UHGV virus genome: UHGV-0042155
DNA from: a virus
Length of the DNA: 29,839 bases
Strand: one strand, 5' to 3'
Every line of letters begins with the position of its first letter. The first letter of the stretch is position 1. Below, piece after piece: positions 1-23,387 of the stretch. The notes beneath the pieces are model-generated. The model ran no database searches and was not told where the DNA came from. It saw nothing but the letters and a program-made list of their open reading frames with translations. The translations under genes were made by a program, and so were the position numbers.

Positions 1-1
1 A

Positions 2-1522
2 TACACTAAATCAGTAAGTTGGCACCATTACCTACCAAGTGGAGGCAAATTTGCCATTGATCTTTTTAGACAAGATCCAAGTCAGTATAAAACTGAGCTC
101 CGCCAACAACTGCGATTAGTGGATTCACGCTCACCTTACGCCAATGATTGGCTACCTCAGGGGTATGCTGATAAAAGCATTTATGCTTTTGGACGTAACG
201 AGTTTTCCAGTATTATTGAATCATCTATCGAATATAAACGTGAAGAAATAATTCGCCGTCTAAATCGTTTTGATCAAGAGTGTGATGATGCCCTATTAAC
301 TCTAGGAATTGATAAGGCCATATTAGAAAATTTATTTTCAGAGTTAACAGGACATGTCATTGGTGAGCGTCTGTATACACATGATATTCGTCTTAACGAG
401 TTACTAGCCAGAGATGTTAGGTTATTCGAGTCTGAATATTACTCTGCTATGTTGGACGTAGTACGAGAATCAGATAACAATGATGATTTAAAAAGGTACG
501 TCATATCATTTTTACAATTATTGGTCGGTGCACACGGACAATCTCTTGTTCAACGCCTAAACCAAGAGTTATTTGAGGCTGCACCGGATGATTTACCCAT
601 CTTCGATGATATTACCGGTATGTTCCGTCTGGAGTTTAATCGCATTGGTTCGACAGCTTTGGAACTATTGCTGGAAGAAAATAGAAATTTCAATATTGAT
701 GAGGATGCAACAGCTCTTACACTTTTCTGTGCTATAGCCCAAAAAGTATTAGAGAATCTGTTCACTACAGTACTCGACTACCAGAAATTGATAGATGACC
801 ATTTCCGATATCTCTTCTCACCTTCCACAGAATGGGCTAAATTTACTCGGATGGTTATTTTCCTCAAGATCGCACGCGATTATATTAGTTCCCAGGCACC
901 ATCTATCGAAGATCTTCCCGATCATGGCTATTATCATGACTTAGCTACATTTGATGGTGATCTAACAATTTCAGCCATTGGTACGGCTAATTATAACAGC
1001 CTTCTGGCAGAGGTTTTCCGTGGTATGAATATAGAATTACCACAAATTATTCACCTGAACGGCAGTGTACACGACTATTATAACCCTTATAAAAATGCGG
1101 TTATTACTTGTGAAAATCCAGATAACGTAGACCAACGTCAGATTCATGTTCCATTCATGCTGACGCAAAGCGGTCTTAAGCCTTTAACATCAGTAACTAT
1201 GTCAAGACGATACGTTAGTCTTTTTGATGCTTATGCTGAATCTGATGCTATTGTTGTTGTAGGTTTTGGATTTAATAAAGATGATAGCCATATTAATGGA
1301 CTTTTCCGTGAACTGGTCGAAAATAAAGGACGGAAATTAATTCTTATTTCGAGGCGTGTGGATGGAAGTGTTGAAGAACAGAAACGGCGGTTGCGAAACA
1401 AACTGCGTATTTCGCATGAGTTTAACCATTTGCTAATAGTAATTCCAGTAGATGATCTCACAAGGTGTCAAGGTGACCGACTATGGTTAGAGCAAGTTGT
1501 TGATACTTTGAACGAGGGATAA
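2..1522 (+). CDS. 5'-truncated cargo ORF of the island; hypothetical protein with C-terminal Rossmann-like motifs
   Basis: The reading frame of ORF 119..1522 stays open with no stop codon back to base 2, and the annotated start at 119 is GTG with no Shine-Dalgarno, so the gene most likely begins left of the window. AT-rich. C-terminal motifs TANYN...HLNGS...VVVGFGFNKDD loosely resemble the SIR2-like TTNYD/HLHG/GYSxxD pattern, but no GAGxS motif is visible. Confidence 0.55.
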   Translation, partial: YTKSVSWHHYLPSGGKFAIDLFRQDPSQYKTELRQQLRLVDSRSPYANDWLPQGYADKSIYAFGRNEFSSIIESSIEYKREEIIRRLNRFDQECDDALLTLGIDKAILENLFSELTGHVIGERLYTHDIRLNELLARDVRLFESEYYSAMLDVVRESDNNDDLKRYVISFLQLLVGAHGQSLVQRLNQELFEAAPDDLPIFDDITGMFRLEFNRIGSTALELLLEENRNFNIDEDATALTLFCAIAQKVLENLFTTVLDYQKLIDDHFRYLFSPSTEWAKFTRMVIFLKIARDYISSQAPSIEDLPDHGYYHDLATFDGDLTISAIGTANYNSLLAEVFRGMNIELPQIIHLNGSVHDYYNPYKNAVITCENPDNVDQRQIHVPFMLTQSGLKPLTSVTMSRRYVSLFDAYAESDAIVVVGFGFNKDDSHINGLFRELVENKGRKLILISRRVDGSVEEQKRRLRNKLRISHEFNHLLIVIPVDDLTRCQGDRLWLEQVVDTLNEG

Positions 1523-1611
1523 AGCAGCTGATGATGGTGCTATAACCATTATGGTTTCTATTAATACTCGCCAGCCCTTATCTCTCTGATAAGGGCCCTA
1601 ATTAATGCTAG

Positions 1612-2235
1612 TTAATTATTACTACACCCAAACGATCTATAACCGTCATCAAAGTTCTTGCTTTTCACTTTGGTGAGATAATCAATTCGATTCAGTAAAT
1701 CGTCGGGATAAATATCATTAAGAATATCATCACGATTCAGGGTATATTTACCATTAGAAGGATACTGTACTAGGTGCTGTCCCTCTTCGGGAGTTATACT
1801 TAATGCGCTGCACCATGCCGAGGTGATCATAGTTCTTAACGTATCTTCATCAAGATTGAAATCCCCTAAGTGGTAGTAAGCATCCTTGTTCAGAAACAGA
1901 AATACGTGAAAATGACGCTTACCATTCTGGGTAAATTCCCTCACCCACGCATAGCGGAGCGTATTCGGGTGTACCCGTTTACCTTCTTTACGCTTGCGCT
2001 GTTCATCTGCTGCCAGTTTGGCTTTCAGTGAATTGGTAAATCTTGATATAGATCCTGAATCAGTATTAGCGATACAGGAAATAGTATCACCATTATCCAG
2101 CATAACCGGGTCATGCAGATCCACCCGTATTGCCAGTGTACGTCCGTGTTCTTTAACAGATTTTGTAATAACATCGATAATCCTTTCTTTGTATGATTTA
2201 ACATGACTGCCATACTCGCTATCGTAGATATTCAT
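1612..2235 (-). CDS. inovirus Gp2-like / YfjJ-family protein
   Basis: 207-aa ORF with the motif RYAWVREFTQNGKRHFHVFLFLNKDAY typical of the YagK/YfjJ (inovirus Gp2-like) family; lies next to the YfjI-like gene as in CP4-57. Confidence 0.75.
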   Translation of the reverse strand: MNIYDSEYGSHVKSYKERIIDVITKSVKEHGRTLAIRVDLHDPVMLDNGDTISCIANTDSGSISRFTNSLKAKLAADEQRKRKEGKRVHPNTLRYAWVREFTQNGKRHFHVFLFLNKDAYYHLGDFNLDEDTLRTMITSAWCSALSITPEEGQHLVQYPSNGKYTLNRDDILNDIYPDDLLNRIDYLTKVKSKNFDDGYRSFGCSNN

Positions 2236-2459
2236 AATAATTCACCCCTCGATGGATAACAGTCATCGCATTACTGGCTATGGCCTACTAGTGATATATA
2301 TACAGGCATGGTTAATTGCAATATAATAACTATCCGACACTGAATTTTAGAAAAATAGTAGCCACAGCCTACGATGACTGATTGAAAGTTACTCTTTAAT
2401 TAGTTGTAATGAAGATAGGTTAATAAAACAATTATTGCGTCCTATCTTTGTTCTGTTCG

Positions 2460-3872
2460 TTATATAAGAATATCAACAGGTTGTATGAAAATGGTTTTCC
2501 CTATCTTCTCCGCCCGTATTTTCTTTTGCGAATAAAGTGTACTGAGAAGCTCATTCGCTTTGCTCCGATTCCTGAACCGGTTCGGACCATATTGCAAGAT
2601 GGTTGTCTTCCTGATATATGGCACCACACACCGGTAGCAATAATCTTTTATCCACGAATAAAGTTCATCTGCTTCTGAACTAACCAACAGCAACGTCTGG
2701 GGTTTAGAGAAAATTCTCACATACTCATCCACATACCAGGCGCTTATCTCTACTGCGGCTTCTACGGCACTGAGGGGTATATCCCCTTCATCACCATTAA
2801 ATTTATGCAGCAGAGCGGCAATCCTTGCCATATTTTCCGCCATTTTAGAGGCGTAATCCTTAAAGCCAGACAGGAAGCCAATCAACCCCATTTCTGACTC
2901 GACCTTGTTATAAAATTCGATCCAGTTCTTTTCGGCTTCTGCAGAGAAACGTAGGCACTGACGCGCATTTTCATCATTTCTGACAATGCTCTCGTTAACG
3001 ATCTCCATCAATCGTTTATGAAATACCGGTAGATGCTCGCTTGATATAACCGGGCTGGTAATTTGTCTGTAACCCTGTGTTGAACTAGGCTGACACATCA
3101 AACACCGCGCGAAGAATCCGATCCCTTTCGCTGTATCGCCTTTACGCTCCAGATACCCTTTTTTGAACACATCAGGCTGAACCATCAACGACAGTGTCAT
3201 TCTGGCGTCTTTGATTAATTTATCTGGCTCGCTTTTTCTTTCCACAGTAAACATTGCGCCATCCCACATTTTATTGATGAAAGGCAGTTCATTCAGCGCA
3301 TAGCCGTTAAAAATGGTACCAGCTTCATCAGACATAAGCCCGATGGACCGCCAACAACCACTGAGATAGTCTTTTATCGCCGCTGGTGTGGCATCATTGA
3401 ATATCTGCCTGAACCTGACCGGTGCTTTCGGGTTCGCCGACAGCAGCATTTTCAGCCGTTCATTCGTTGTGGAGTGATCTTTGTTACGGCGAATATCTGA
3501 TTTCAGTTTTGATATCAGGGCTTTCTTTTCAATGTTAAAAGTCGTTTCCTCATTCCGCCAGATAATTAAATCTTGGGTATATTTTTCAAAGCATGCTTCT
3601 TCCAGTTGATACAATGGCTTCATTAGCAGTTTGTCCACCGTGCTTTTGCGTTCACCAGAATCCGCCAGTGTCAGTAAAAAAAGTGATACTGGGCTGCGCA
3701 GATTATTCAGTCGGCACACATCAATCCGGTTCTGGCAGGCAAGCGAAATAACCCCCAACACCGATGCAGCAATCAAAGCCTGGGGTGCCTGCGTATGCTG
3801 TTCCACTTCATAAACCGCATTTCTGATGATCTGCGGGAAGACATGTACAGGGAAAGGACGACCACACGACAT
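2460..3872 (-). CDS. DUF3987-family (YfjI-like) protein
   Basis: 470-aa ORF of the size, strand and position of YfjI, immediately downstream of alpA in a CP4-57-like arrangement. Confidence 0.75.
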   Translation of the reverse strand: MSCGRPFPVHVFPQIIRNAVYEVEQHTQAPQALIAASVLGVISLACQNRIDVCRLNNLRSPVSLFLLTLADSGERKSTVDKLLMKPLYQLEEACFEKYTQDLIIWRNEETTFNIEKKALISKLKSDIRRNKDHSTTNERLKMLLSANPKAPVRFRQIFNDATPAAIKDYLSGCWRSIGLMSDEAGTIFNGYALNELPFINKMWDGAMFTVERKSEPDKLIKDARMTLSLMVQPDVFKKGYLERKGDTAKGIGFFARCLMCQPSSTQGYRQITSPVISSEHLPVFHKRLMEIVNESIVRNDENARQCLRFSAEAEKNWIEFYNKVESEMGLIGFLSGFKDYASKMAENMARIAALLHKFNGDEGDIPLSAVEAAVEISAWYVDEYVRIFSKPQTLLLVSSEADELYSWIKDYCYRCVVPYIRKTTILQYGPNRFRNRSKANELLSTLYSQKKIRAEKIGKTIFIQPVDILI

Positions 3873-4002
3873 AGATACCTCTCATTCTATTAATTTAATA
3901 AATAATTCAGCGAAATGGCTATTCTGCTATTAATAGCGGAAATAGCAGGATGACTACCGACAATCCGATGACAGCAATTGAGTATGAATTCATGTAGCAT
4001 CC

Positions 4003-4215
4003 TCAAATAAGTTTGCTGCGTTGCGATAGCCATTCTTCAATCTCTGATTCAACCCATCCAACAGATTTCACTCCGAGCATTCGCTTTTTGGGGAAGGAAG
4101 CATCGTAACGTGGTGATTTGGGGTTCAACCAATCGTAGATTGTTGCTCGTGCCATACCAGTTTTTTGGATAACAGCAGGTAAGCGGAGTATCCTAACGGT
4201 TGATGGATTATTCAT
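4003..4215 (-). CDS. alpA: AlpA-family phage transcriptional regulator
   Basis: 70-aa ORF MNNPSTVRILRLPAVIQKTGMARATIYDWLNPKSPRYDASFPKKRMLGVKSVGW..., near-identical to E. coli AlpA as recalled. Confidence 0.9.
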   Translation of the reverse strand: MNNPSTVRILRLPAVIQKTGMARATIYDWLNPKSPRYDASFPKKRMLGVKSVGWVESEIEEWLSQRSKLI

Positions 4216-4340
4216 GCTTGATTGCCTCTTATTAGTTCATTTTGGTTGTAGAAAGATTAGCGGCAAGCATCAATGCAAAAAATCCGTGTACCAAAAAAAC
4301 ATTTTTTACAACACTTAACTAATTGATATTTGGTGTATTT

Positions 4341-5219
4341 ATGTTGTCAGCGATTGAGTTTTGCGAAGAAATTAGTCAAAAATCGGATTGGCTTGCTGGG
4401 CATATGGTCGAATGTGATTGGGACATATATGTTGATCTGCTCAGCGAAAGGTATCCCGTGATACAGAAGGAACTAAGCGAGATGCGAGATCAATTCTGGA
4501 ATTCTGATAAGGTAGGAACACGTGTGATTTTGTACAGTGATCCATCTCGTAAGGAGTATAAATATTGTACTGTTGACGGAGTGGAGCAATTAAAAGAAGA
4601 ATATACAGAAGTATATGATCCAGCTCAGGAATGCTGGAAACAGTTAAAATCACGTATTTTCAGGGAAACGTTTTGTCATCTTATTCAGGATGATTTTTTA
4701 ATTAATGATGTGTTTAAGTCACATCTATTTTTTGCCTCAATGTCTTATCAATGGGCAAAATCAGTTATGTCGGAGAATGAATGTGTCGCTATTAAAGCGT
4801 TCATTAAGTCAGCTGAATTATTTGATAGATGTATTGGTATGTCATGGTTTCATGTTTCTGTATGTACCCAAAAAAAATTATCACATGTTAGAGCTAAGGC
4901 CGGAAAACAAGGTGGGAACAGTAAATCAGAGGTATATCGAATAATTCAAGATAAGCTTGTTTATTTGATCAATAACTCCGTACCTGAAGGTGGGTGGAAA
5001 AGTAAAGCAGCTGCGGTGAATGACCTCATTGACCCCTTATGGAAATTTGTCGAAGAGTCAAATTTTGAAATTAATAATCAAAGTAAAAAATATCGGATAT
5101 CAACAATGAGCCCTGATGCATTGGCAGATACCATTATAAAAAACTGGTCAAGAAATATTGAGAGTATCAAATTGGCTTTCGATAATACGGTTACTAGAAA
5201 AAAGAAAACCAAAGGGTAA
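4341..5219 (+). CDS. hypothetical AT-rich orphan protein at the intA-alpA position (yfjH-equivalent locus)
   Basis: Long ORF convergent with intA; the track start at 4323 is TTG, the first ATG is 4341. Low GC relative to flanks. No recognisable motif. Confidence 0.55.
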   Translation: MLSAIEFCEEISQKSDWLAGHMVECDWDIYVDLLSERYPVIQKELSEMRDQFWNSDKVGTRVILYSDPSRKEYKYCTVDGVEQLKEEYTEVYDPAQECWKQLKSRIFRETFCHLIQDDFLINDVFKSHLFFASMSYQWAKSVMSENECVAIKAFIKSAELFDRCIGMSWFHVSVCTQKKLSHVRAKAGKQGGNSKSEVYRIIQDKLVYLINNSVPEGGWKSKAAAVNDLIDPLWKFVEESNFEINNQSKKYRISTMSPDALADTIIKNWSRNIESIKLAFDNTVTRKKKTKG

Positions 5220-5277
5220 AATTCCGTATTACCTATAGGTGAGTTATCAGCACCCATTATGGGTGCTGATAAAGGAT

Positions 5278-6519
5278 TCATCCTACAAGACGTATTCCCC
5301 TAACCCCACTATTCACGATACTGCCGCTATCTGCTGCTTTAACAAAATCAGCCCACCACTGCATCATCGGTCGTCGTTGCTCAAGATAGTCACTTCGATT
5401 GTAAGCGCGACGTACCTCATTCTTATCTACATGAGCAAGTGCAGCCTCAATAACATCAGGCGGAAATCCTTCCTCATTGAGTGCCGTACTGGCAATAGAA
5501 CGTAAGCCGTGTGAAACGAGTACGCCTCCTAAACCAGCACGCTTAAGGGCTGCATTTACTGTCTGGCTGTTCATAGGCTGGGTAGGCTTAATGCGACTGG
5601 GAAAGATAAATTCTCGACCACCGCTGAGAGACTTCATTATTTCCAGAATAGCGAGAGCTCCATCAGATAATGGAACCGTATGCTCCCGATTCATCTTCAT
5701 TCGAGCAGCTGGAATTTTCCATTCGCTAGCATCGAAATCGATCTCATCCCATCGAGCCTCAGCAGCTTCGGCAGGGCGGGTGATGGTGAGAAGCTGCCAC
5801 ATGAACAGGCATCGTGTGGACAGGCTGATACTTGCCGTACGCATAGTCTGCATTAGCTGTGGAAGTTGACCTGGGTGGATGCTTGGCATGTTTTTCTTTT
5901 GCGGTTTCTCGAATGCTTTCCCGATGTTTACGCTGGGAACCGCATCAATCAGGCCTGTGTTCTGCGCATAAATCATGACTTCGTTAATACGCTGACAAAG
6001 GCGGCGGACTGTCTCTAATGCACCTCTGGCCTGAACCGGATGAACTGCTTTAACCAAAGTATGAGCCTTAATCTCAGTGACACTGATATCACCGATTGCC
6101 GGGAGAACATCCCTCTCAAGCGAGCGCCAGATATCGTCGGCATAGTCCTCTGTTACGCTGGCTTTCTTCACATTCCACCAACGCTCGGCAACTAACCGGA
6201 AAGTGTTGGTTTTGGCCTCTTGAGAATTTCTCACCTGTTCTTTCTGATGTTCCTGAGGATCAATGTCTTTCGCCAACAAAACTCGAGATTCAGCTCTGAG
6301 TTTACGCGCATCAGAAAGGGAGACGGCTGGATAGGCTCCGAAGCTCTGCTTGGTTCGCTGCTTGGTCAGAGGTCGATAGTAACGGAACTGCCAGAGCTTA
6401 CTACCGCTGGACTTGATTAGCAGAGTAAGCCCGTCACCATCATACAGCTGGTAATCGGCATCTTTAGGTTTGGCGGCTTTGATTTCCGTATCGGTTAACG
6501 GCTTGGTTTTTCTTGCCAT
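5278..6519 (-). CDS. intA: P4-type tyrosine integrase (CP4-57 IntA-like)
   Basis: 413-aa ORF MARKTKPLTDTEIKAAKPKDADYQLYDGDGLTLLIKSSGSKLWQFRYY...; length and N-terminus match CP4-57 IntA; sits next to the tmRNA 3'-end fragment. Confidence 0.9.
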   Translation of the reverse strand: MARKTKPLTDTEIKAAKPKDADYQLYDGDGLTLLIKSSGSKLWQFRYYRPLTKQRTKQSFGAYPAVSLSDARKLRAESRVLLAKDIDPQEHQKEQVRNSQEAKTNTFRLVAERWWNVKKASVTEDYADDIWRSLERDVLPAIGDISVTEIKAHTLVKAVHPVQARGALETVRRLCQRINEVMIYAQNTGLIDAVPSVNIGKAFEKPQKKNMPSIHPGQLPQLMQTMRTASISLSTRCLFMWQLLTITRPAEAAEARWDEIDFDASEWKIPAARMKMNREHTVPLSDGALAILEIMKSLSGGREFIFPSRIKPTQPMNSQTVNAALKRAGLGGVLVSHGLRSIASTALNEEGFPPDVIEAALAHVDKNEVRRAYNRSDYLEQRRPMMQWWADFVKAADSGSIVNSGVRGIRLVG

Positions 6520-6543
6520 GGGGAGTCTCCATGCGTTTAGGCC

Positions 6544-6641
6544 NNNNNNNNNNNNNNNNNNNNNNNNNNNNNNNNNNNNNNNNNNNNNNNNNNNNNNNNN
6601 NNNNNNNNNNNNNNNNNNNNNNNNNNNNNNNNNNNNNNNNN
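6544..6641. other. assembly gap (run of N)
   Basis: 98 consecutive N characters. Confidence 0.99.
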
Positions 6642-6714
6642 GGGCCTATCAATGGGCCTAAAAGGTTCGGATTTAATTAGTTCTCTTCGGACTTCGCGGG
6701 ACAAATTCAGGGCA

Positions 6715-6747
6715 CAAAAAAGCCCGCAGGGCTTGCGCCGTGCGGGC
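6715..6747 (-). terminator. rho-independent terminator downstream of the tmRNA 3'-end fragment
   Basis: Stem agcccgca (6720-6727) pairs with tgcgggct (6740-6747); a T-run follows on the minus strand (plus-strand A-run 6715-6720). Confidence 0.6.
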
Positions 6748-6794
6748 TCTTAGGACTTCATCGGATGACTCTGGTAATCACCGATGGAGAATTT

Positions 6795-6828
6795 TGGTGG
6801 AGCTGGCGGGAGTTGAACCCGTGTCCGA
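6795..6828 (-). other. tmRNA (ssrA) 3'-terminal fragment; attachment core shared by the two elements
   Basis: Minus-strand sequence TTCGGACACGGGTTCAACTCCCGCCAGCTCCACCA matches the T-arm, acceptor 3' strand and CCA end of enterobacterial tmRNA; sequence further 5' (6829 onward) does not look like tmRNA body. Confidence 0.7.
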
Positions 6829-6953
6829 ATAATGCTTAACCTATTGAATATTAATGTTTTGTCTTTTTTGAAAGGCCTCAAGTGCATTTTACGTGCATAT
6901 CGTGGTCCCTCTAACGTCCTGATTCCGTCCAACATTTTGAAATACTCACGACG

Positions 6954-8126
6954 CTACAGAGCTGCTGAAATGGCGGTTTTCCCGTCGTATTCAGCCAGGT
7001 ATTTACCGTAATTGCGGAACAGCATTTCCGGCCCTTTATGCCCCATCTGCCCGGCAAGCCAGAAAAGGTTTACGCCCTGGCTAATGTGTCTGGTGGCGAA
7101 TGTGTGGCGGGTCTGGTACGGGTTACGGTATCGAACGCCAGCTTTTTTGAGGGTTGGCACCCATGCTTTTTTTCGTATTGCGTCGGCGTTCGCCCAGGGC
7201 TCTCCCGTTTTAGGGTCGCTGAAAATAAACTCGCTTTTCATGAAAGTGAATTGTTTCTGCGCCTGCAGCGCGGCCAGCGCCTCGCTGTTTAATTCTACTT
7301 TACGGGTACCGGCTTTTGTTTTGGTGCCTTTCAGAACGCCAACAACACTCGCCGCCTGAACGTGAGCTGTTTTAGCGATATTGTCGAGATCAGGCCAGCG
7401 CAACGCACACAGCTCAGAGCTGCGTAAACCTGTATTGAATGCGAAACGGAACAGGTTTTCCCATTCCGGATAACTGCAGCTCTGGTAAATGGCGCTGATT
7501 TCCGCTGGTGTGAACGGATCAACTTCGTAATCGTCACTATTCGGGCTGCTGTCGATCACGTGGTACCGACTCGCGCTGACAAGGGTTACCGGGTTGATAG
7601 TCAGCAGGCCGTCTGTCACCGCTTCATCTATGGCGCTGCGCAGAAACGAGAGGTTATTCCTGATTGTTTTCAGCTTTGTTTTTCTGCTGGCGATCCAGTT
7701 TTTGAGGACCGCAGGGGTCAGTTCCGATACATGCATTTTGTGCAGCGCAGATAGCGCAGACAGGCACTTTTCATAACCGCCAATAGTGGACGGCGAAAGG
7801 TTGCGGTTCTGGCAGATTTTCAGATACTCGTCCAGGTAGGACTTAATATTTTTGGTTTTCTTCACTACCCCGAACAGCTCCAGTTTTTTGGAGGTGGGGA
7901 AGTATTTCGCATAATCGAATGTGCCGCCGGCGATCTGATTCTGTATCTCCCCCAGCAGGCGCTCGGCATACTTCACGCCGCGCGCGTTTGCTTCCATTCT
8001 GGAAAGGGGCTCCCGGCAGAGAACCCCCTTGTAGGTGAATGTGATCACCAGGGTGTCGCCAGTTTTATGCTGGCGAATGGTTACTCCTCTTGGGAGAGAT
8101 AATGATCCTTGTTCTTTCTTGCCCAC
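6954..8126 (-). CDS. lambdoid-phage tyrosine integrase
   Basis: 390-aa ORF with an N-terminal arm-binding-like region and C-terminal catalytic region (R...HTFATRH...Y); transcribed toward the att core, overlapped at its 5' end by xis. Confidence 0.9.
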   Translation of the reverse strand: MGKKEQGSLSLPRGVTIRQHKTGDTLVITFTYKGVLCREPLSRMEANARGVKYAERLLGEIQNQIAGGTFDYAKYFPTSKKLELFGVVKKTKNIKSYLDEYLKICQNRNLSPSTIGGYEKCLSALSALHKMHVSELTPAVLKNWIASRKTKLKTIRNNLSFLRSAIDEAVTDGLLTINPVTLVSASRYHVIDSSPNSDDYEVDPFTPAEISAIYQSCSYPEWENLFRFAFNTGLRSSELCALRWPDLDNIAKTAHVQAASVVGVLKGTKTKAGTRKVELNSEALAALQAQKQFTFMKSEFIFSDPKTGEPWANADAIRKKAWVPTLKKAGVRYRNPYQTRHTFATRHISQGVNLFWLAGQMGHKGPEMLFRNYGKYLAEYDGKTAISAAL

Positions 8127-16896: not shown

Positions 16897-16917
16897 AGCC
16901 CCTTGCGGGGCTTTTTT
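16897..16917. terminator. tR'-like terminator, also 3' of the convergent 316-aa gene
   Basis: Stem agcccc / ggggct with loop ttgc, followed by TTTTTT on the plus strand. Confidence 0.7.
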
Positions 16918-17866
16918 ATGGCAGCGAGTTAACGAAAGAACTGAAAAGGGCCTTATCTTTATTGCTAATTGATTTTTTCAAATGTAGTTGATGATTTAAA
17001 GGTTTAAAGTTTTCCTTTGTGAGATATATACATGCTTTCTCAAAACGATCCTGAAGGAATTGAAATCTTTCATTCAGCCTGGAAACTTTTAATCCTAATG
17101 ACATGACCTTCTTCTCAGGAATATCGTCAGGATTGCAATTATTGAGTTCTTCCAGCACAAGGCGAATATCTCTTTCGAAGATTGGCGCTATGTTATAATC
17201 GTTGAGGAGGCATTCAGGATTACGAACAATGCCAATTACTTCGTCGATGAATTGTGGTTTTACATTATCCTCAGCATTTTCATCTTCGTTATCGGAAGGT
17301 TTTTGAGACATAACATTCGACAACTGCATTTCTTCCTTGGTTTTCCTTCTGGGAAGTAAAACTTTTCCATCTCCTAAAGCAGCCATACGTTTCAAAGCTT
17401 GACTCCCGGCTCGGCCAACTACTTTAGAATCTCTTAAATCTAAAATTTTATGTGCGACCCATTCTAATGATGGTTCACTGGCTTCGATTTTGGCTTTTGC
17501 TTGGTAATGGAGAAAAATATTTTTCTTGGCTTCCTTGAGGGCTGTTAGATATCTGTGGAAATTTGCCTTTTTCTCGAGGTCAGTGGCTAGGTTTTCAAAT
17601 GCTATACCGAAGACTTTTGTACCGCAAACGTGACCCAGGTTCGTCTCCAGACCATCCTCAGTAAGAACAAGAAACCCTTTTTTATGGCCTGTTCGACAGC
17701 TCGACTTGCCACACGGGATTTCTTCCGGGAGGTCATCATAATAACCAAAAACATCGGATAATTGTTGATCGGTCAGTTCCAGCCTGGAATGATAGCTTTC
17801 CCGAGCTTGAATTTCTGTCCAGTCATTAATGCGATCAAAGCTATTGCCGTTTTTAATAAAAATCAT
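16916..17866 (-). CDS. hypothetical AT-rich moron protein (316 aa), antisense to the late transcript
   Basis: Long ORF of low GC on the strand opposite the late operon, between tR' and the tRNA cluster; Cys/His cluster CGKSSCRTGH...GHVCG; no recognisable family. Confidence 0.7.
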   Translation of the reverse strand: MIFIKNGNSFDRINDWTEIQARESYHSRLELTDQQLSDVFGYYDDLPEEIPCGKSSCRTGHKKGFLVLTEDGLETNLGHVCGTKVFGIAFENLATDLEKKANFHRYLTALKEAKKNIFLHYQAKAKIEASEPSLEWVAHKILDLRDSKVVGRAGSQALKRMAALGDGKVLLPRRKTKEEMQLSNVMSQKPSDNEDENAEDNVKPQFIDEVIGIVRNPECLLNDYNIAPIFERDIRLVLEELNNCNPDDIPEKKVMSLGLKVSRLNERFQFLQDRFEKACIYLTKENFKPLNHQLHLKKSISNKDKALFSSFVNSLP

Positions 17867-17991: not shown

Positions 17992-18068
17992 GGCCCTTTA
18001 GCTCAGTTGGTTAGAGCGTGCGACTCATAATCGCCCGGTCGCTGGTTCAAGTCCAGCAAGGGCCACCA
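17992..18068 (+). tRNA. tRNA with CAU anticodon (Ile2/lysidine-type or Met)
   Basis: Cloverleaf read by hand: acceptor ggccctt/aagggcc, D arm gctc...gagc, anticodon loop ctCATaa, T arm gctgg-ttcaagt-ccagc, encoded CCA; resembles enterobacterial tRNA-Ile2. Confidence 0.85.
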
Positions 18069-18070
18069 GA

Positions 18071-18144
18071 CCGCCACTAGCTCATCGGGAAGAGCGGCAA
18101 CCCAGGTGTTGTGGTACGGGGTTCGAGGCTCCGGTGGCGGACCA
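18071..18144 (+). tRNA. tRNA-like gene with non-canonical 6-nt anticodon loop (possible pseudogene)
   Basis: Good acceptor (ccgccac/gtggcgg), D arm and T arm and an encoded CCA, but the best anticodon fold is gcaac-ccaggt-gttgt with a 6-nt loop. Confidence 0.5.
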
Positions 18145-18146
18145 CT

Positions 18147-18222
<76 letters not shown>

Positions 18223-18225
18223 TAT

Positions 18226-18300
<75 letters not shown>

Positions 18301-18909: not shown

Positions 18910-19117
18910 TGGTACTAATTAAGTTGTGAGAACGTAGTCTCATTTAACCACATTTATCGAGTTGTTTTACTAATGGTCTAGTTATTTCAGACATATTCAT
19001 CAATTTCAGGCTCACGGGAATCATCCGCTACGTGCTTTGTTGATAAATCCAGCCCGTGAAGCCTGACCCTTTTCAAACACACACACAGCACCATCCGGAA
19101 AATCGGAGGTGAGGCCT

Positions 19118-19441
19118 ATGAAAATGCCATACAAACAAGATTTCATCGCTGCGCTACTTGCCGCCAAGGAGCAGGGTATTGGTGCAATGCTGGCTTTTAT
19201 CATGGCGTATCTGCGTGGTCGCTATAACGGCGGCGCGGTAACAAAAACGCTAATTGATGCGCTGATGTGCGCGATGATTGCCTGGTTCGTTCGTGACCTT
19301 CTGGACTTTATCGGCCTGAGCAGCAACCTCGCCTACATAGCCAGCGTCTTTATTGGATACATCGGCACCGATTCGATCGGCAATCTTATTAAAAAACTTG
19401 CAGCAAAAAAGGCGGGAGTTGACGATGCAAACCAGTCCTGA
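19118..19441 (+). CDS. S: lambda S-type holin
   Basis: [40 protein letters not shown]... closely matches lambda S including the Met-Lys-Met dual start; the track start at 19109 is GTG. Confidence 0.9.
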
Positions 19442-19874
19442 CGGAATTGCTCTGATAAAAAAATTTGAAGGTTGTCGGCTGACTGCTTACCCCGACCCCG
19501 GAACGGGAGATGCGCCGTGGACCATCGGCTATGGCTGGACCCATCCGGTTGACGGAAAGCCAGTAAAGCGCGGTATGACTATCGACCAGCAAACCGCTGA
19601 CAGGCTTCTGAAAACAGGGCTTGTTGGTTATGAGAATGACGTGCTGAAAGTTGTCAGGGTGAAGCTGACACAAGGCCAGTTCGACGCACTGGTGTCGTTC
19701 GCTTACAACGTTGGGTCGCGTGCTCTTTCCACATCTACACTGCTGAAAAAGCTGAATGCTGGCGATATAAAAGGCGCGGCAGATGAATTTCTGCGCTGGA
19801 ATAAATCAGGCGGAAAGGTGATGCCGGGGCTCACGAATCGCCGCAAGGCAGAGCGAGCTCTGTTCCTGTCATGA
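19425..19874 (+). CDS. endolysin, T4/P22-type lysozyme (not lambda R transglycosylase type)
   Basis: [33 protein letters not shown]...[12 protein letters not shown] lysozyme motifs; start overlaps the holin 3' end; GGAG Shine-Dalgarno. Confidence 0.85.
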
Positions 19875-20344
19875 TTAGCGCACTGGTTAAGCGTTACTGG
19901 CTGCAGTTGCTGGTGCTGGCGTTAATCGGCGCACTGGCTTTCTTCGTGAACCACTACCGCGACAACGCCATCACTTACAGAGACCAGCGCGATAAAGCCA
20001 CAAAGAACCTCCGCCTGGCTAATGCCACCATCAAAGATATGCAGACCCGCCAGCGTGATGTCGCTGCACTGGATGCCAAATACACGAAGGAATTGTCCGA
20101 TGCGAAAAAGACCATTAACGATTTGCGTCGTGATGTCGATTCTGGCGCTAAACGGCTGCGCATCGCCGCAACCTGCCCTGGAGTGCCAAAAGCCACCTCC
20201 TCCACCGGCGTGGATGATGCAGGAGTCCCCGAACTTACTCCAGACGCTCGACGGAATTATTTCGATCACCGGGACGGAATCGCAACCGCTGACAAAATGA
20301 TTCGCGGCATGCAGGACTACATCAAAGAGCAGTGTCTTAAGTGA
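19871..20344 (+). CDS. Rz: Rz i-spanin
   Basis: N-terminal TM segment then coiled-coil-like region; start overlaps the lysozyme stop; Rz1 is embedded in the +1 frame. Confidence 0.85.
20100..20300 (+). CDS. Rz1: Rz1 o-spanin lipoprotein, embedded in Rz
   Basis: [20 protein letters not shown] signal peptide with lipobox Cys, and the proline-rich [11 protein letters not shown] motif also seen in lambda Rz1. Confidence 0.7.
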
Positions 20345-20363
20345 TTCGTCACCCAAATAACAG

Positions 20364-20388
20364 AGCCTGACTTCGGTCGGGCTTTTTT
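20364..20388 (+). terminator. terminator-like hairpin after Rz
   Basis: gcctgac-ttcg-gtcgggc stem with one mismatch, followed by TTTTTT. Confidence 0.5.
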
Positions 20389-20415: not shown

Positions 20416-20616
20416 ATGTTAACAGTAAAAGTAATGTCGCCAGGTGGCGGTGAAGAGATTCATTGCGGGTTGAGTGTAGGGTTCAATCCGGGGCAGCAGA
20501 GCATCGCGGTATCGGGAATGGACAAAAATGTATTCCTGAAACCTGGCGAGGTCGCCTACGTGATGAACCAGAACGGGAAGACGGTATCTCGTTACGAGCA
20601 TAATGACCGCCAGTAG
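20416..20616 (+). CDS. hypothetical small protein (66 aa)
   Basis: ORF with an AGGAG Shine-Dalgarno directly after the post-Rz terminator. Confidence 0.5.
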   Translation: MLTVKVMSPGGGEEIHCGLSVGFNPGQQSIAVSGMDKNVFLKPGEVAYVMNQNGKTVSRYEHNDRQ

Positions 20617-20865
20617 CCATTCCAAAGCTCACCTGCTGGTGGGCTTGATAATGGATATCCCCCTGAGCGGATAAATCAAAAATAACCCCTGCAACGGATA
20701 ATGACGGAGCAACAGATGGCAAAAGCCAAATGGCACAGACTTCCGGCATTCACCATTCCGCCAGGTGACGCAGCCAGAATTGTTGATTGGCTGATCGCGG
20801 CATTACAGCAGGCATTCACTGAGTGCCTGTGATAATGCAACAGCCCGTACAAAACGGGCTTGGAT

Positions 20866-21480
20866 TTATCTCTTTGTTGCGTTCATGGTCACATGGTAAA
20901 CGAATTGGCTAAATTGGTTATCCCAGCGCCCATTATGATTAGCTGCAACTAATTGCATTAACGCCTGCATTAACTTGCTGAACAGCAAGATTAACTTAAG
21001 TCTGTTTTTTGAACTGTCACTATCTAAGGAAACTTCTTCGGTTAATTGATTCTCGGCGTTAAAAATACCCAGTTTTGATTCTTCCATGCTGGGTTCCGTT
21101 GGATGCTGTTTAAAGTATTCAGTCAGAGTATCCGTCAGGCTCTGGATCCTTGAATCAGCAATGCTTTGTATTGATGGATTGTGTGCAAGGTCATTACGCA
21201 TTGAGTTGATGGTTTTAAGTGATTTCATAAGTTCCGTGGGGATTCCCAGGTTTCCCGCCATGGATATTTTAGTATTACATTCGATTAAAAGTTTGTTTTT
21301 ATCTCTTCCAAAGAGATCTTGGCAGTCACAGCATGCGCATATCCATGCTTCGACCATGCGCTCACAAAGTAGGTGAATGCGCAATGTAGTACCCACATCG
21401 TCATCGCTTTCCACTGCTCTCGCGAATAAAGATGGAAAATCAATCTCATGGTAATAGTCCATGAAAATCCTTGTATTCAT
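20866..21480 (-). CDS. hypothetical AT-rich moron protein (204 aa) with Rx4H HEPN-like motif
   Basis: Opposite-strand, low-GC ORF between the lysis cassette and cos, where lambda carries bor; contains SMRNDLAHNP (R-x4-H) and a Cys cluster CACCDC. Confidence 0.7.
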   Translation of the reverse strand: MNTRIFMDYYHEIDFPSLFARAVESDDDVGTTLRIHLLCERMVEAWICACCDCQDLFGRDKNKLLIECNTKISMAGNLGIPTELMKSLKTINSMRNDLAHNPSIQSIADSRIQSLTDTLTEYFKQHPTEPSMEESKLGIFNAENQLTEEVSLDSDSSKNRLKLILLFSKLMQALMQLVAANHNGRWDNQFSQFVYHVTMNATKR

Positions 21481-21865
21481 AAATCCTCCAGGTAGCTATA
21501 TGCAAATTGAAACAAAAGAGATGGTGATCTTTCTAAGAGATGATGGAATCTCCCTTCAGTATCCCGATGGTCAATGCGCTGGATATGGGATAGATGGGAA
21601 TATGCTGATTTTTATGGGACAGAGTTGCGAACTGTTCCCAACTAAAATCATTTTGCACGATCAGCGCACTACGAACTTTACCCACAAATAGTCAGGTAAT
21701 GAATCCTGATATAAAGACAGGTTGATAAATCAGTCTTCTACGCGCATCGCACGCGCACATCAAAGAGAGTCTTTCAGTAGTGAGCCTGGGTGATGCCGTT
21801 AGGTTGCGTTTACCTCTCGGGCGGCATTGCCGTGCGACAGGCTCACGCCTAAAAGGAAATATTCC

Positions 21866-22594
21866 ATGAGTAACAAAATCATTACGCTATCTGGCGCTGC
21901 TAATGAAGTGCTTTATGCGCTGTTTTTCCGTGGCGCGTTGCTGTCTGGTGATCTGCCTTCTAAATCTGGCACAGCCGAATTGCGCGAGCTTGGTTTTGCT
22001 GAAACCAGACACACAGCAACTGAATACCAGAAAGAAAATCACTTTACCTTTCTGACATCAGAAGGGCAGAAATTTGCCGTTGAACACCTGGTCAATACGC
22101 GTTTTGGTGAGCAGCAATATTGCGCTTCGATGACGCTTGGCGTTGAGATTGATACCTCTGCTGCACAAAAGGCAATCGACGAGCTGGACCAGCGCATTCG
22201 TGACACCGTCTCCTTCGAACTTATTCGCAATGGAGTGTCATTCATCAAGGACGCCGCTATCGCAAATGGTACTATCCACGCAGCGGCAATCGAAACACCT
22301 CAGCCGGTGACCAATATCTACAACATCAGCCTTGGTATCCAGCGTGATGAGCCAGCGCAGAACAAGGTAACCGTCAGTGCCGATAAGTTCAAAGTTAAAC
22401 CTGGTGTTGATACCAACATTGAAACGTTGATCGAAAACGCGCTGAAAAACGCTGCTGAATGTGCGGCGCTGGATGTCACAAAGCAAATGGCAGCAGACAA
22501 GAAAGCGATGGATGAACTGGCTTCCTATGTCCGCACGGCCATCATGATGGAATGTTTCCCCGGTGGTGTTATCTGGCAGCAGTGCCGTCGATAG
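21866..22594 (+). CDS. hypothetical phage protein immediately upstream of cos
   Basis: First ATG with an AAGGAA Shine-Dalgarno (track start 21827 lies upstream); 242 aa; family not recognised. Confidence 0.65.
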   Translation: MSNKIITLSGAANEVLYALFFRGALLSGDLPSKSGTAELRELGFAETRHTATEYQKENHFTFLTSEGQKFAVEHLVNTRFGEQQYCASMTLGVEIDTSAAQKAIDELDQRIRDTVSFELIRNGVSFIKDAAIANGTIHAAAIETPQPVTNIYNISLGIQRDEPAQNKVTVSADKFKVKPGVDTNIETLIENALKNAAECAALDVTKQMAADKKAMDELASYVRTAIMMECFPGGVIWQQCRR

Positions 22595-22652
22595 TGTGCA
22601 ATTGATAATTATTATCGTTTGCGGGTCCTTTCCGGCGATCCGCCTTGTTACG

Positions 22653-22664
22653 GGGCGGCGTCCG
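22653..22664. other. lambda-type cos site, cosN 12-nt cohesive end
   Basis: gatccgccttgttacg|GGGCGGCGTCCG|cgcag...ctatttatgaaaatttt parallels the lambda right-end/left-end junction (lambda overhang GGGCGGCGACCT); cosB-like sequence follows, then Nu1. Confidence 0.75.
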
Positions 22665-22841
22665 CGCAGATTCTCGCTATTTATGAAAATTTTCAGGCAT
22701 TTGCCGTTTCCGTTCTTCTTCTCGCTAATTCATTGTTTTAACTGTAAACACCCCCTGAAAAGAAAGGAAATGATAAGCCTTAAAAACGGCTAAATAGCCA
22801 GAGGGCGTTTCCTTTCTCTGTTTTTGTGTATGGAGTGAGCT

Positions 22842-23387
22842 ATGGAGGTCAACAAAAAGCGTCTTTCTGAAATATTTGGGGTCAGCGTGCGAACCATTCA
22901 GAACTGGCAGGATCAGGGAATGCCTGTAGCACGTGGCGGTGGAAAAGGTAATGAGGTCCTCTATGAATCTTCCGCGGCTATCGAATGGTATTCCGCACGC
23001 GACGCGGCGATTGAGAATGAGAAATTACGGAAGGAGGTGGAAGACCTTCGTCTTGCATCGGAATCCGACCTTCAGCCTGGTACGATTGACTATGAGCGTC
23101 ACCGCCTCACCCGAGCGCAGGCAGATGCCCAGGAACTAAAAAATGCAAAAGATTCCGCTGAGGTGGTGGAAACCGCATTCTGCACGTTCGTGCTGTCGCG
23201 GATGGCCGGAGAAGTAGCCAGCATTCTTGATGGAGTTCCTCTGTCGGTTCAGCGGCGCTTCCCGGAGCTGGAAAACCGACATATTGATTTCCTCAAGAAG
23301 GACATCATTAAAGCCATGAACAAAGCAGCTGCGCTGGATGAAATAATACCGGGGTTGCTGAGTGAATATATCGAACAGTCAGGTTAA
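22842..23387 (+). CDS. Nu1: terminase small subunit
   Basis: MEVNKKRLSEIFGVSVRTIQNWQDQGMPVARGGGKGNEVLYES... is near-identical to lambda Nu1. Confidence 0.95.
   Translation: MEVNKKRLSEIFGVSVRTIQNWQDQGMPVARGGGKGNEVLYESSAAIEWYSARDAAIENEKLRKEVEDLRLASESDLQPGTIDYERHRLTRAQADAQELKNAKDSAEVVETAFCTFVLSRMAGEVASILDGVPLSVQRRFPELENRHIDFLKKDIIKAMNKAAALDEIIPGLLSEYIEQSG

Follow-up and report, generated by a model that had tools for sequence, protein, structure and literature searches.

The opposite-strand gene located between the lysis and terminase genes of a lambdoid Escherichia coli prophage probably encodes a standalone HEPN ribonuclease distantly homologous to HepS, and together with a small divergently oriented partner gene it may form a HepS-like abortive infection cassette directed against competing phages (a reading to which we assign a probability of about 0.6). 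The gene was studied within a 29,839-nucleotide stretch of DNA (virus genome UHGV-0042155), which was analyzed as a whole and is referred to here as the window. The identification of its product as an HEPN-fold protein carrying a conserved RNxxxH motif of the catalytic type is well supported by homolog alignments and by the structural model, and a function in defense is suggested by homology that is only distant. Rather than being categorically new, the system is best grouped with the HepS-like HEPN abortive infection nucleases, from which its partner gene and antisense placement in the late region set it apart.

A mobile low-GC two-gene cassette

The window matches a lambdoid prophage of E. 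coli MS 115-1 at 100% identity, and this prophage adjoins ssrA. The HEPN gene shares the interval between Rz/Rz1 and terminase with three other ORFs (66, 63, and 242 aa), and the region between Rz/Rz1 and cos is the place where lambda carries bor. The features of this part of the window are listed below.

19109-20344: holin, endolysin, and Rz/Rz1, the lysis block preceding the HEPN gene in window coordinates
20416-20616, plus strand: ORF of 66 aa (phrog_3909), in the same lysis-terminase interval as the HEPN gene
20842-20860, no strand assigned: GC-rich hairpin (AGCCCGT / ACGGGCT, 7 bp with a 5-nt loop), directly 3' of the HEPN stop codon
20866..21480, minus strand: HEPN-fold protein gene, 204 aa, ATG start; phi80 gp52 (YP_007947985.1) / E. 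coli WP_001097361.1
21007..21126, minus strand: hypervariable segment (residues 119-158) with a beta-hairpin insert (strands 137-140 and 146-150), from pairwise identity and the model
21181-21198, minus strand: codons of the predicted HEPN catalytic motif R95-N96-D-L-A-H100 (RNxxxH), from conservation and the HepS alignment
21484-21489, minus strand: Shine-Dalgarno sequence GGAGGA, 3 nt 5' of the HEPN ATG, read directly from the sequence
21500..21691, plus strand: partner gene, 63 aa; phi80 gp51 ('putative Fur-regulated protein', phrog_20632)
21866-22594, plus strand: gp59-like ORF, 242 aa, between the cassette and cos; phi80 gp49, N15 gp59-like
about 22595-22841: cos, placed via phi80 synteny
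from 22842: terminase small subunit gene, beyond the HEPN gene

A sequence-only reading of this DNA had described an opposite-strand 204-aa ORF at the lambda bor position, and both the ORF and its position were confirmed. The ORF is real, starting from an ATG with a strong Shine-Dalgarno sequence, and a GGAG-type site is kept at the equivalent position in divergent loci. It lies between the lysis genes at 19109-20344 and the terminase gene starting at 22842, with cos located through synteny with phi80. The same reading had the ORF bracketed by terminators, which was borne out on one side at best. On the 3' side, the hairpin at 20842-20860 has a folding energy of -16.7 kcal/mol on the minus strand (z = -2.7) and -18.2 kcal/mol on the plus strand (z = -2.2) and is possibly a bidirectional terminator, with a weak T-tail on the strand of the HEPN gene and no call from the terminator scanner. 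No convincing terminator was found on the 5' side of the ORF, and the plus-strand terminator-like sites at 20362-20385 and 22799-22820 flank the entire accessory region rather than the HEPN ORF. The promoter scanner returned no sigma-70-like site for the HEPN gene, and no positionally conserved promoter was present across the 10 divergent loci compared; we infer that the gene is expressed in the lysogen.

The lower GC content that had been reported for the ORF relative to its flanking genes was reproduced (0.403 versus 0.527 in the lysis genes and 0.521 in terminase). The partner gene has an equally low GC content (0.411), and the low-GC island (0.40-0.41) therefore comprises exactly the HEPN and partner genes. 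With regard to the remaining sequence of this interval, the 66-aa ORF at 20416-20616 on the plus strand stands where phi80 has the rha gene, and homology of the window to phi80 and Nissle starts only at about 20797, so that the conserved block consists of the HEPN gene, the small gene, and the gp59-like gene without the sequence following Rz.

We found the HEPN gene in 147 of 5,426 complete E. coli genomes, in which it is always annotated as 'hypothetical'. It occurs in E. coli Nissle 1917 at 99.7% nucleotide identity, and a scan of one genome per species yielded only two HEPN loci. At the loci examined, the gene invariably runs antisense to the late genes around it. It occupies the gap between lysis and terminase genes in three backbones (E. 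coli/phi80, Citrobacter/Enterobacter, and that of a 29%-identical member), and in divergent members it lies among tail genes, beside M, L, the major tail protein gene, or a J-like gene. Members with 35-51% identity carry the two-gene cassette antisense inside tail clusters (L043:4770-5576, L048:1968-2747, L042:218-1059, and L010:5782-6606, where L denotes individual loci), and the slots used are located between M and L homologs, beside the major tail protein gene, and just upstream of a J-like gene. Such a placement deserves attention, since both of the related sensors, HepS and Tha, have tail proteins as their triggers. Thus, the HEPN and partner genes make up a horizontally mobile low-GC two-gene cassette, and the description of the HEPN gene as a moron agrees with its low GC content, its opposite strand, and its presence in different slots of different phage backbones. 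In the literature covered (phi80 together with HEPN, and the DefensePredictor paper), no publication characterizing the HEPN gene was found.

HEPN fold, catalytic-type residues, and relationship to HepS

The catalytic motif of the HEPN superfamily, Rx4-6H, commonly takes the form R-[NHQD]-x3-H, and dimerization that creates a composite active site is a further hallmark of these RNases. The initial proposal of an HEPN-like protein was based on the segment SMRNDLAHNP, which is indeed present and contributes R95 and H100, but the bare Rx4-6H pattern that it was taken to match does not serve as evidence for HEPN identity. This pattern turned up in 59% of shuffles of the HEPN protein; of the 22 ORFs in the window that are at least 150 aa long, 16 contain it, and the HEPN protein itself has a further copy at R4. 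Being no more common than expected by chance, it is uninformative when considered alone and acquires meaning only from invariance among homologs and from the fold. The stricter form RNxxxH appeared in 1.8% of the shuffles of the protein.

Conservation of these residues was therefore considered at increasing evolutionary distances. The close homologs constitute a small enterobacterial family of 19 clusters, in which R95, N96, A99, and H100 are invariant. An exhaustive profile search gave 211 cluster representatives, nearly all of which are 170-215 aa in length, and RNxxxH is present in 160 of the 168 homologous proteins that were retrieved. In an alignment of 136 sequences extending down to approximately 17% identity, R95, N96, and H100 are the sole invariant columns, and H36, E40, and K71 are nearly invariant. 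That only these three residues are invariant is the pattern of a catalytic site and not of a scaffold, and the protein would accordingly be expected to have RNase activity. The opposite behavior was observed for residues 119-158, which show 15-26% identity compared with 55-75% for the remainder of the protein in the same pairs. Such hypervariability would be expected of a surface that determines ligand specificity, which makes the segment a candidate specificity or sensor surface; it also suggests an arms race in which the ligand varies.

Structure prediction, which had been proposed as a check, gave a single-domain helical-bundle HEPN fold into which a beta-hairpin is inserted and which has an extra C-terminal helix. 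The corresponding profile check had a mixed outcome. The window protein had no direct match in Pfam (E <= 1), including the HEPN, Abi_2, and Swt1 families that had been named, or in NCBIfam, and it did not reach the gathering score of Abi_2/AbiD-AbiF (PF07751), a family for which weak matches were seen in 7 of the 136 members of the wider family. Weak independent HEPN or Abi hints came from Pfam HEPN families, matched by 23, 8, and 7 of these 136 members, from PADLOC CARF_HEPN (E = 0.004), and from an Abi PHROG (E = 0.02). In contrast, profiles built from the family itself reached HepS, with E = 6.9e-4 for the narrow-family profile and E = 1.6e-18 for the wider profile (70 bits; positions 14-137 versus chain residues 20-144), and HEPN domains of Csm6 were the next-best matches in the wider-profile search. 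Comparison of the narrow family with the HepS clade by hhalign gave a probability of 81% (E = 1.2e-5, 137 columns), and a BLASTP match to HepS spanned 30 residues around the motif at 47% identity. A tblastn search of the phage collection with a HepS fragment produced no match, and HepS was instead recovered via the protein database. HepS is the best match of the window protein in both structure and sequence. The HEPN identity that had been suspected from the motif is thus upheld by the predicted fold and the invariant RNxxxH, and the nearest characterized relative is a proven prophage abortive infection nuclease.

HepS (STM14_3211) is a 'HEPN solo' abortive infection anticodon nuclease of Salmonella Gifsy-1 (Sargen et al., Nature 2026, PMC13043305; PDB 9oij and 9oik). 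It exists as an inactive tetramer, which is opened by the nascent tail-tip protein J (residues 902-933, F924) and then cuts the anticodon loops of tRNA-Thr and tRNA-Ile, whereupon the infection aborts; R100, N101, and H105 are required for activity, N101 is a modeled tRNA contact, and overexpression of HepS is non-toxic, a phage trigger being required (PMC13043305). R95, N96, and H100 of the window protein align with these three residues, and its 204 aa in a single domain (210 aa in HepS) fall within the inclusion rule (standalone proteins of <250 aa with no other domain) of the HepS authors, who list 393 homologs (PMC13043305). On the other hand, the two proteins are only about 14-19% identical. 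Among HepS residues involved in allostery, tetramer formation, or tRNA contact, hhalign pairs L83 with L78 and N101 with N96 of the window protein, whereas F66, K78, and I107 are aligned with K63, S73, and P102, respectively, K71 is opposite a gap, and the alignment does not extend to Y20. The same alignment pairs N159/R160 with HepS N166/R167 and E40 with HepS E48. Neither the trigger-binding termini nor the relay residues of HepS are conserved in the window protein.

The partner gene and competing explanations

The partner gene is arranged head-to-head with the HEPN gene, the two start codons being 19-21 bp apart (19 bp in the window). It encodes a protein of 63-69 aa and is always co-oriented with late or structural genes. 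Among the 39 loci with an HEPN protein of at least 47% identity, 37 have this gene, as does one 35%-identical member. Its dN/dS values (about 0.1-0.4) show that it is under purifying selection. The sequence-only reading, largely right in its conclusion, had envisaged a single-gene system; this is contradicted by a small partner that is conserved in this way and co-transferred, and it is probably wrong. The partner protein is modeled as a four-stranded beta-meander (pLDDT 80), for which no Pfam match and no significant structural match were obtained. The exceptions to its conservation are L032:5810-6048 and L044:4917-5051, where the partner ORF is frameshifted or truncated and the HEPN gene (60-62% identical) is intact; these cases could be due to sequencing error, or the nuclease could be tolerated without its partner. 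A 'QIFM' likeness of the small protein to the J trigger was considered and rejected as statistically unsupported. The cassette also shows mosaicism between E. coli and Citrobacter (window 21500-21691 versus L007:5772-5981): the small gene is 89% identical (dS 0.2), and in the same pair the HEPN gene is 62% identical, with saturated dS and most of its divergence in residues 119-158, a pattern suggestive of recombination or of a diversifying exchange of this segment.

A prophage HEPN nuclease accompanied by a small gene has a precedent in Tha and Ith. Tha is an HEPN RNase (RNxxxH) of an S. aureus prophage that is triggered by minor tail proteins, and it is silenced in the lytic cycle by Ith, the product of an opposite-strand gene of about 66 aa (Rostol et al., Nat Microbiol 2024, PMC11087260). 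The pair in the window is similar in that a prophage HEPN protein with RNxxxH is accompanied by a small gene on the opposite strand, which here is co-oriented with lytic transcription. However, Tha is a 301-aa protein with an extra N-terminal region, and tha and ith overlap at their 3' ends within the lysogeny module (PMC11087260), whereas the window pair is head-to-head in the late region. In hhalign comparisons, the HEPN protein versus Tha-1 gave a probability of 0.3%, with only RN..H aligned, and the partner versus Ith-1 gave 0.15%. No homology was detectable between either protein and its counterpart, and Tha/Ith can thus be used as an analogy only.

Compared with HepS, the loci described here differ in the relation between the nuclease and its carrier. 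In Gifsy-1, HepS is co-oriented in the nin region and has no partner gene, whereas the window gene is antisense in the late/tail region and is accompanied by a conserved small divergent partner, such that these loci are not 'solo' in the sense applied to HepS. In addition, Gifsy prophages escape HepS by carrying Ile at J position 924, whereas phi80 and the MS 115-1 prophage, both carriers of the window-type gene, retain Phe at the J residue equivalent to lambda J F924, which implies that the trigger and escape rule of HepS is not simply transferable. HepS has established that the sensing of a phage tail protein and the abortion of infection can reside in one prophage HEPN protein, whose carrier must then solve the problem of autoimmunity (PMC13043305). 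The partner, the antisense placement among late and tail genes, and the Phe kept in J together suggest that immunity and self-propagation are reconciled here by other means. This question is directly testable in phi80, which is genetically very tractable.

According to the reading that we favor, the HEPN protein would be present in the lysogen as an inactive oligomer. A protein of the competing phage would bind to the variable HEPN surface, and the precedents of HepS and Tha make a late structural or tail protein the most likely ligand. The candidate trigger surfaces are the hypervariable hairpin of residues 119-158 and the conserved but disordered N- and C-termini. Binding of the trigger would open the composite R95/N96/H100 site, allowing tRNA or another RNA to be cut, and RNA cleavage would stop translation and thereby abort the infection. 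Both this trigger and this RNA target are presumed. The small partner, which has the transcriptional direction of the late operon and begins about 20 bp away from the HEPN start, is probably a modulator of the nuclease, to judge from the analogy with Ith, and most plausibly it would turn the nuclease off in the carrier's own lytic cycle as Ith does for Tha.

A more specific and more tentative proposal, which we consider possible though somewhat unlikely, is that the cassette represents a two-component, tail-sensing HEPN immunity of Gram-negative temperate phages, in which the nuclease guards the lysogen and the partner acts as a self-immunity factor or co-sensor. Here the partner would be read from the late transcript, which would itself run antisense through the HEPN gene. 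If this were true, phi80-type phages with a 'triggering' Phe in J could finish their own lytic cycle, and their solution to autoimmunity would be convergent with that of Tha/Ith and distinct from the silent J of HepS carriers.

The presence of two adjacent genes might also be explained by a toxin-antitoxin or addiction module, in which an HEPN toxin and a small-protein or antisense-RNA antitoxin stabilize the prophage without any sensing of phages. Known HEPN-MNT toxin-antitoxin systems of type II/VII (PDB 5yep and 7ae2) include SO_3166/SO_3165. The neighbors of the HEPN gene in the window contain no MNT or NTase domain, the partner being instead a 63-aa beta-protein encoded on the opposite strand, and the window HEPN protein is larger, with its beta-hairpin insert and extra C-terminal helix. 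A divergent, non-operonic layout is atypical of type II toxin-antitoxin systems, and the intact HEPN gene beside a frameshifted partner at two loci argues that the partner is not an essential antitoxin. The lack of toxicity of overexpressed HepS, which needs its phage trigger, and the hypervariable surface, with the arms race it suggests, likewise disagree with such a module, and we regard it as unlikely.

It appears quite improbable that the gene is a strict HepS ortholog, i.e., a nuclease that acts alone, is triggered by the central straight fiber of J from siphoviruses, and cuts tRNA-Thr and tRNA-Ile, the small gene being irrelevant. The best structural and sequence match to HepS, the comparable size of two single-domain proteins, the location of divergent members among tail-tip genes, and the correspondence of N96 to the modeled tRNA contact N101 are all in accordance with orthology. 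However, the J proteins of phi80 and of the MS 115-1 prophage have Phe where Gifsy has Ile for silence, and phi80 would consequently abort itself if the trigger logic were identical. The divergence of the trigger-binding termini and relay residues and a partner that is retained under purifying selection, for which HepS has no equivalent neighbor, also speak against it.

Much less probable is a non-catalytic HEPN-fold regulator similar to MtlR/YggD, such as a transcriptional or protein-binding prophage factor, given that R, N, and H are the sole invariant residues across 136 homologs and that the profile links lead to HepS and Csm6 and not to MtlR. Finally, lambda bor encodes a small outer-membrane lipoprotein involved in lysogenic conversion, and a bor-like conversion factor for virulence or serum resistance, for which only the shared position of an opposite-strand moron between Rz/Rz1 and cos could be invoked, is effectively refuted by fold and homology: the window protein is unrelated to Bor and has a cytosolic helical HEPN fold, its homologs are HEPN proteins, it has no Pfam match at all and hence belongs to no bor-like family, and neither a membrane segment in the all-helical model nor, by eye, a signal peptide or lipobox was found.

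With this gene, a distant relative of HepS is placed in the classical phage phi80, in the probiotic E. coli Nissle 1917, and in the defense-model strain MS 115-1, in all of which its annotation is still 'hypothetical'. The family is missed by current defense-annotation libraries (PADLOC 2023, Pfam, and NCBIfam). In lysogens of phi80 or Nissle, the cassette could be the cause of phage-resistance phenotypes.

The gp59-like neighbor and other elements of the window

The gp59-like ORF between the cassette and cos passes the Pfam threshold for Phage_Tail_Tip (25 bits). The match, a segment resembling the central fiber of J, maps to residues 845-972 of lambda J, a region that contains the HepS trigger peptide, and the segment 'NGVSFIKDAAIANGTI' of the gp59-like protein aligns with 'NGQTFIRASFIQDGTI' of phi80 J, including the Phe equivalent to F924. 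Proteins of the gp59 family were located at three further loci:

L052:2195-2968, minus strand: gp59-family protein
L054:3197-3820, plus strand: gp59-family protein
L053:2291-3133, plus strand: gp59-family protein

These free-standing 'mini-J' proteins of the gp59 family all end in PGGxxW. Salmonella phage FSL SP-016 has a different 'gp59' with a strong J-fiber domain beside a 28%-identical HEPN gene, and in N15 and Fraca, neither of which has the HEPN gene, the same cos-proximal slot is taken by gp59-family members containing J-like segments. We considered the gp59-like ORF as an obligate partner of the HEPN gene and rejected this idea, as the two occur together only in phi80-type loci and in the FSL SP-016 variant. 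The presence of the family in the HEPN-less N15 and Fraca makes shared synteny the simpler explanation of their proximity. The 'mini-J' proteins might conceivably act as decoys for HepS-type sensors or modulate them, an idea that is unsupported.

The window also contains a group of tRNA genes:

17992-18300, plus strand: tRNA cluster downstream of Q, comprising tRNA-CAT (annotated as Ile), tRNA-Thr(TGT), and tRNA-Gly(TCC)

The Thr and Gly tRNA genes of this cluster are 100% identical to host thrU and glyT and thus look like recently captured host copies. A malformed tRNA-like element at 18071-18144 was assigned a 2-nt anticodon by ARAGORN and has no PGAP annotation. The possibility that the prophage tRNAs serve as replacements for the targets of a HepS-like tRNase was rejected on account of this identity to the host genes; furthermore, among 5,426 E. 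coli genomes just 1 has the cluster linked to the HEPN gene, and phi80 carries no tRNAs.

A second opposite-strand ORF of low GC content (0.39) was observed at 16916-17866 on the minus strand (316 aa, WP_000576246.1, phrog_7003, no Pfam match). Its position between the Q antiterminator gene and the tRNA cluster is another classic moron slot, and it may be regarded as a candidate accessory or defense gene. The left part of the window (1-8126) contains an IS1 end and a P4/CP4-57-like island, with an inovirus Gp2-family gene, YfjI, AlpA, and intA (about 5350-6591), and this island directly adjoins the integrase of the lambdoid prophage (about 6954-8126). This arrangement indicates two tandem integrative elements located between a tRNA-Ile gene, just to the left of the window, and ssrA, beyond its right end.
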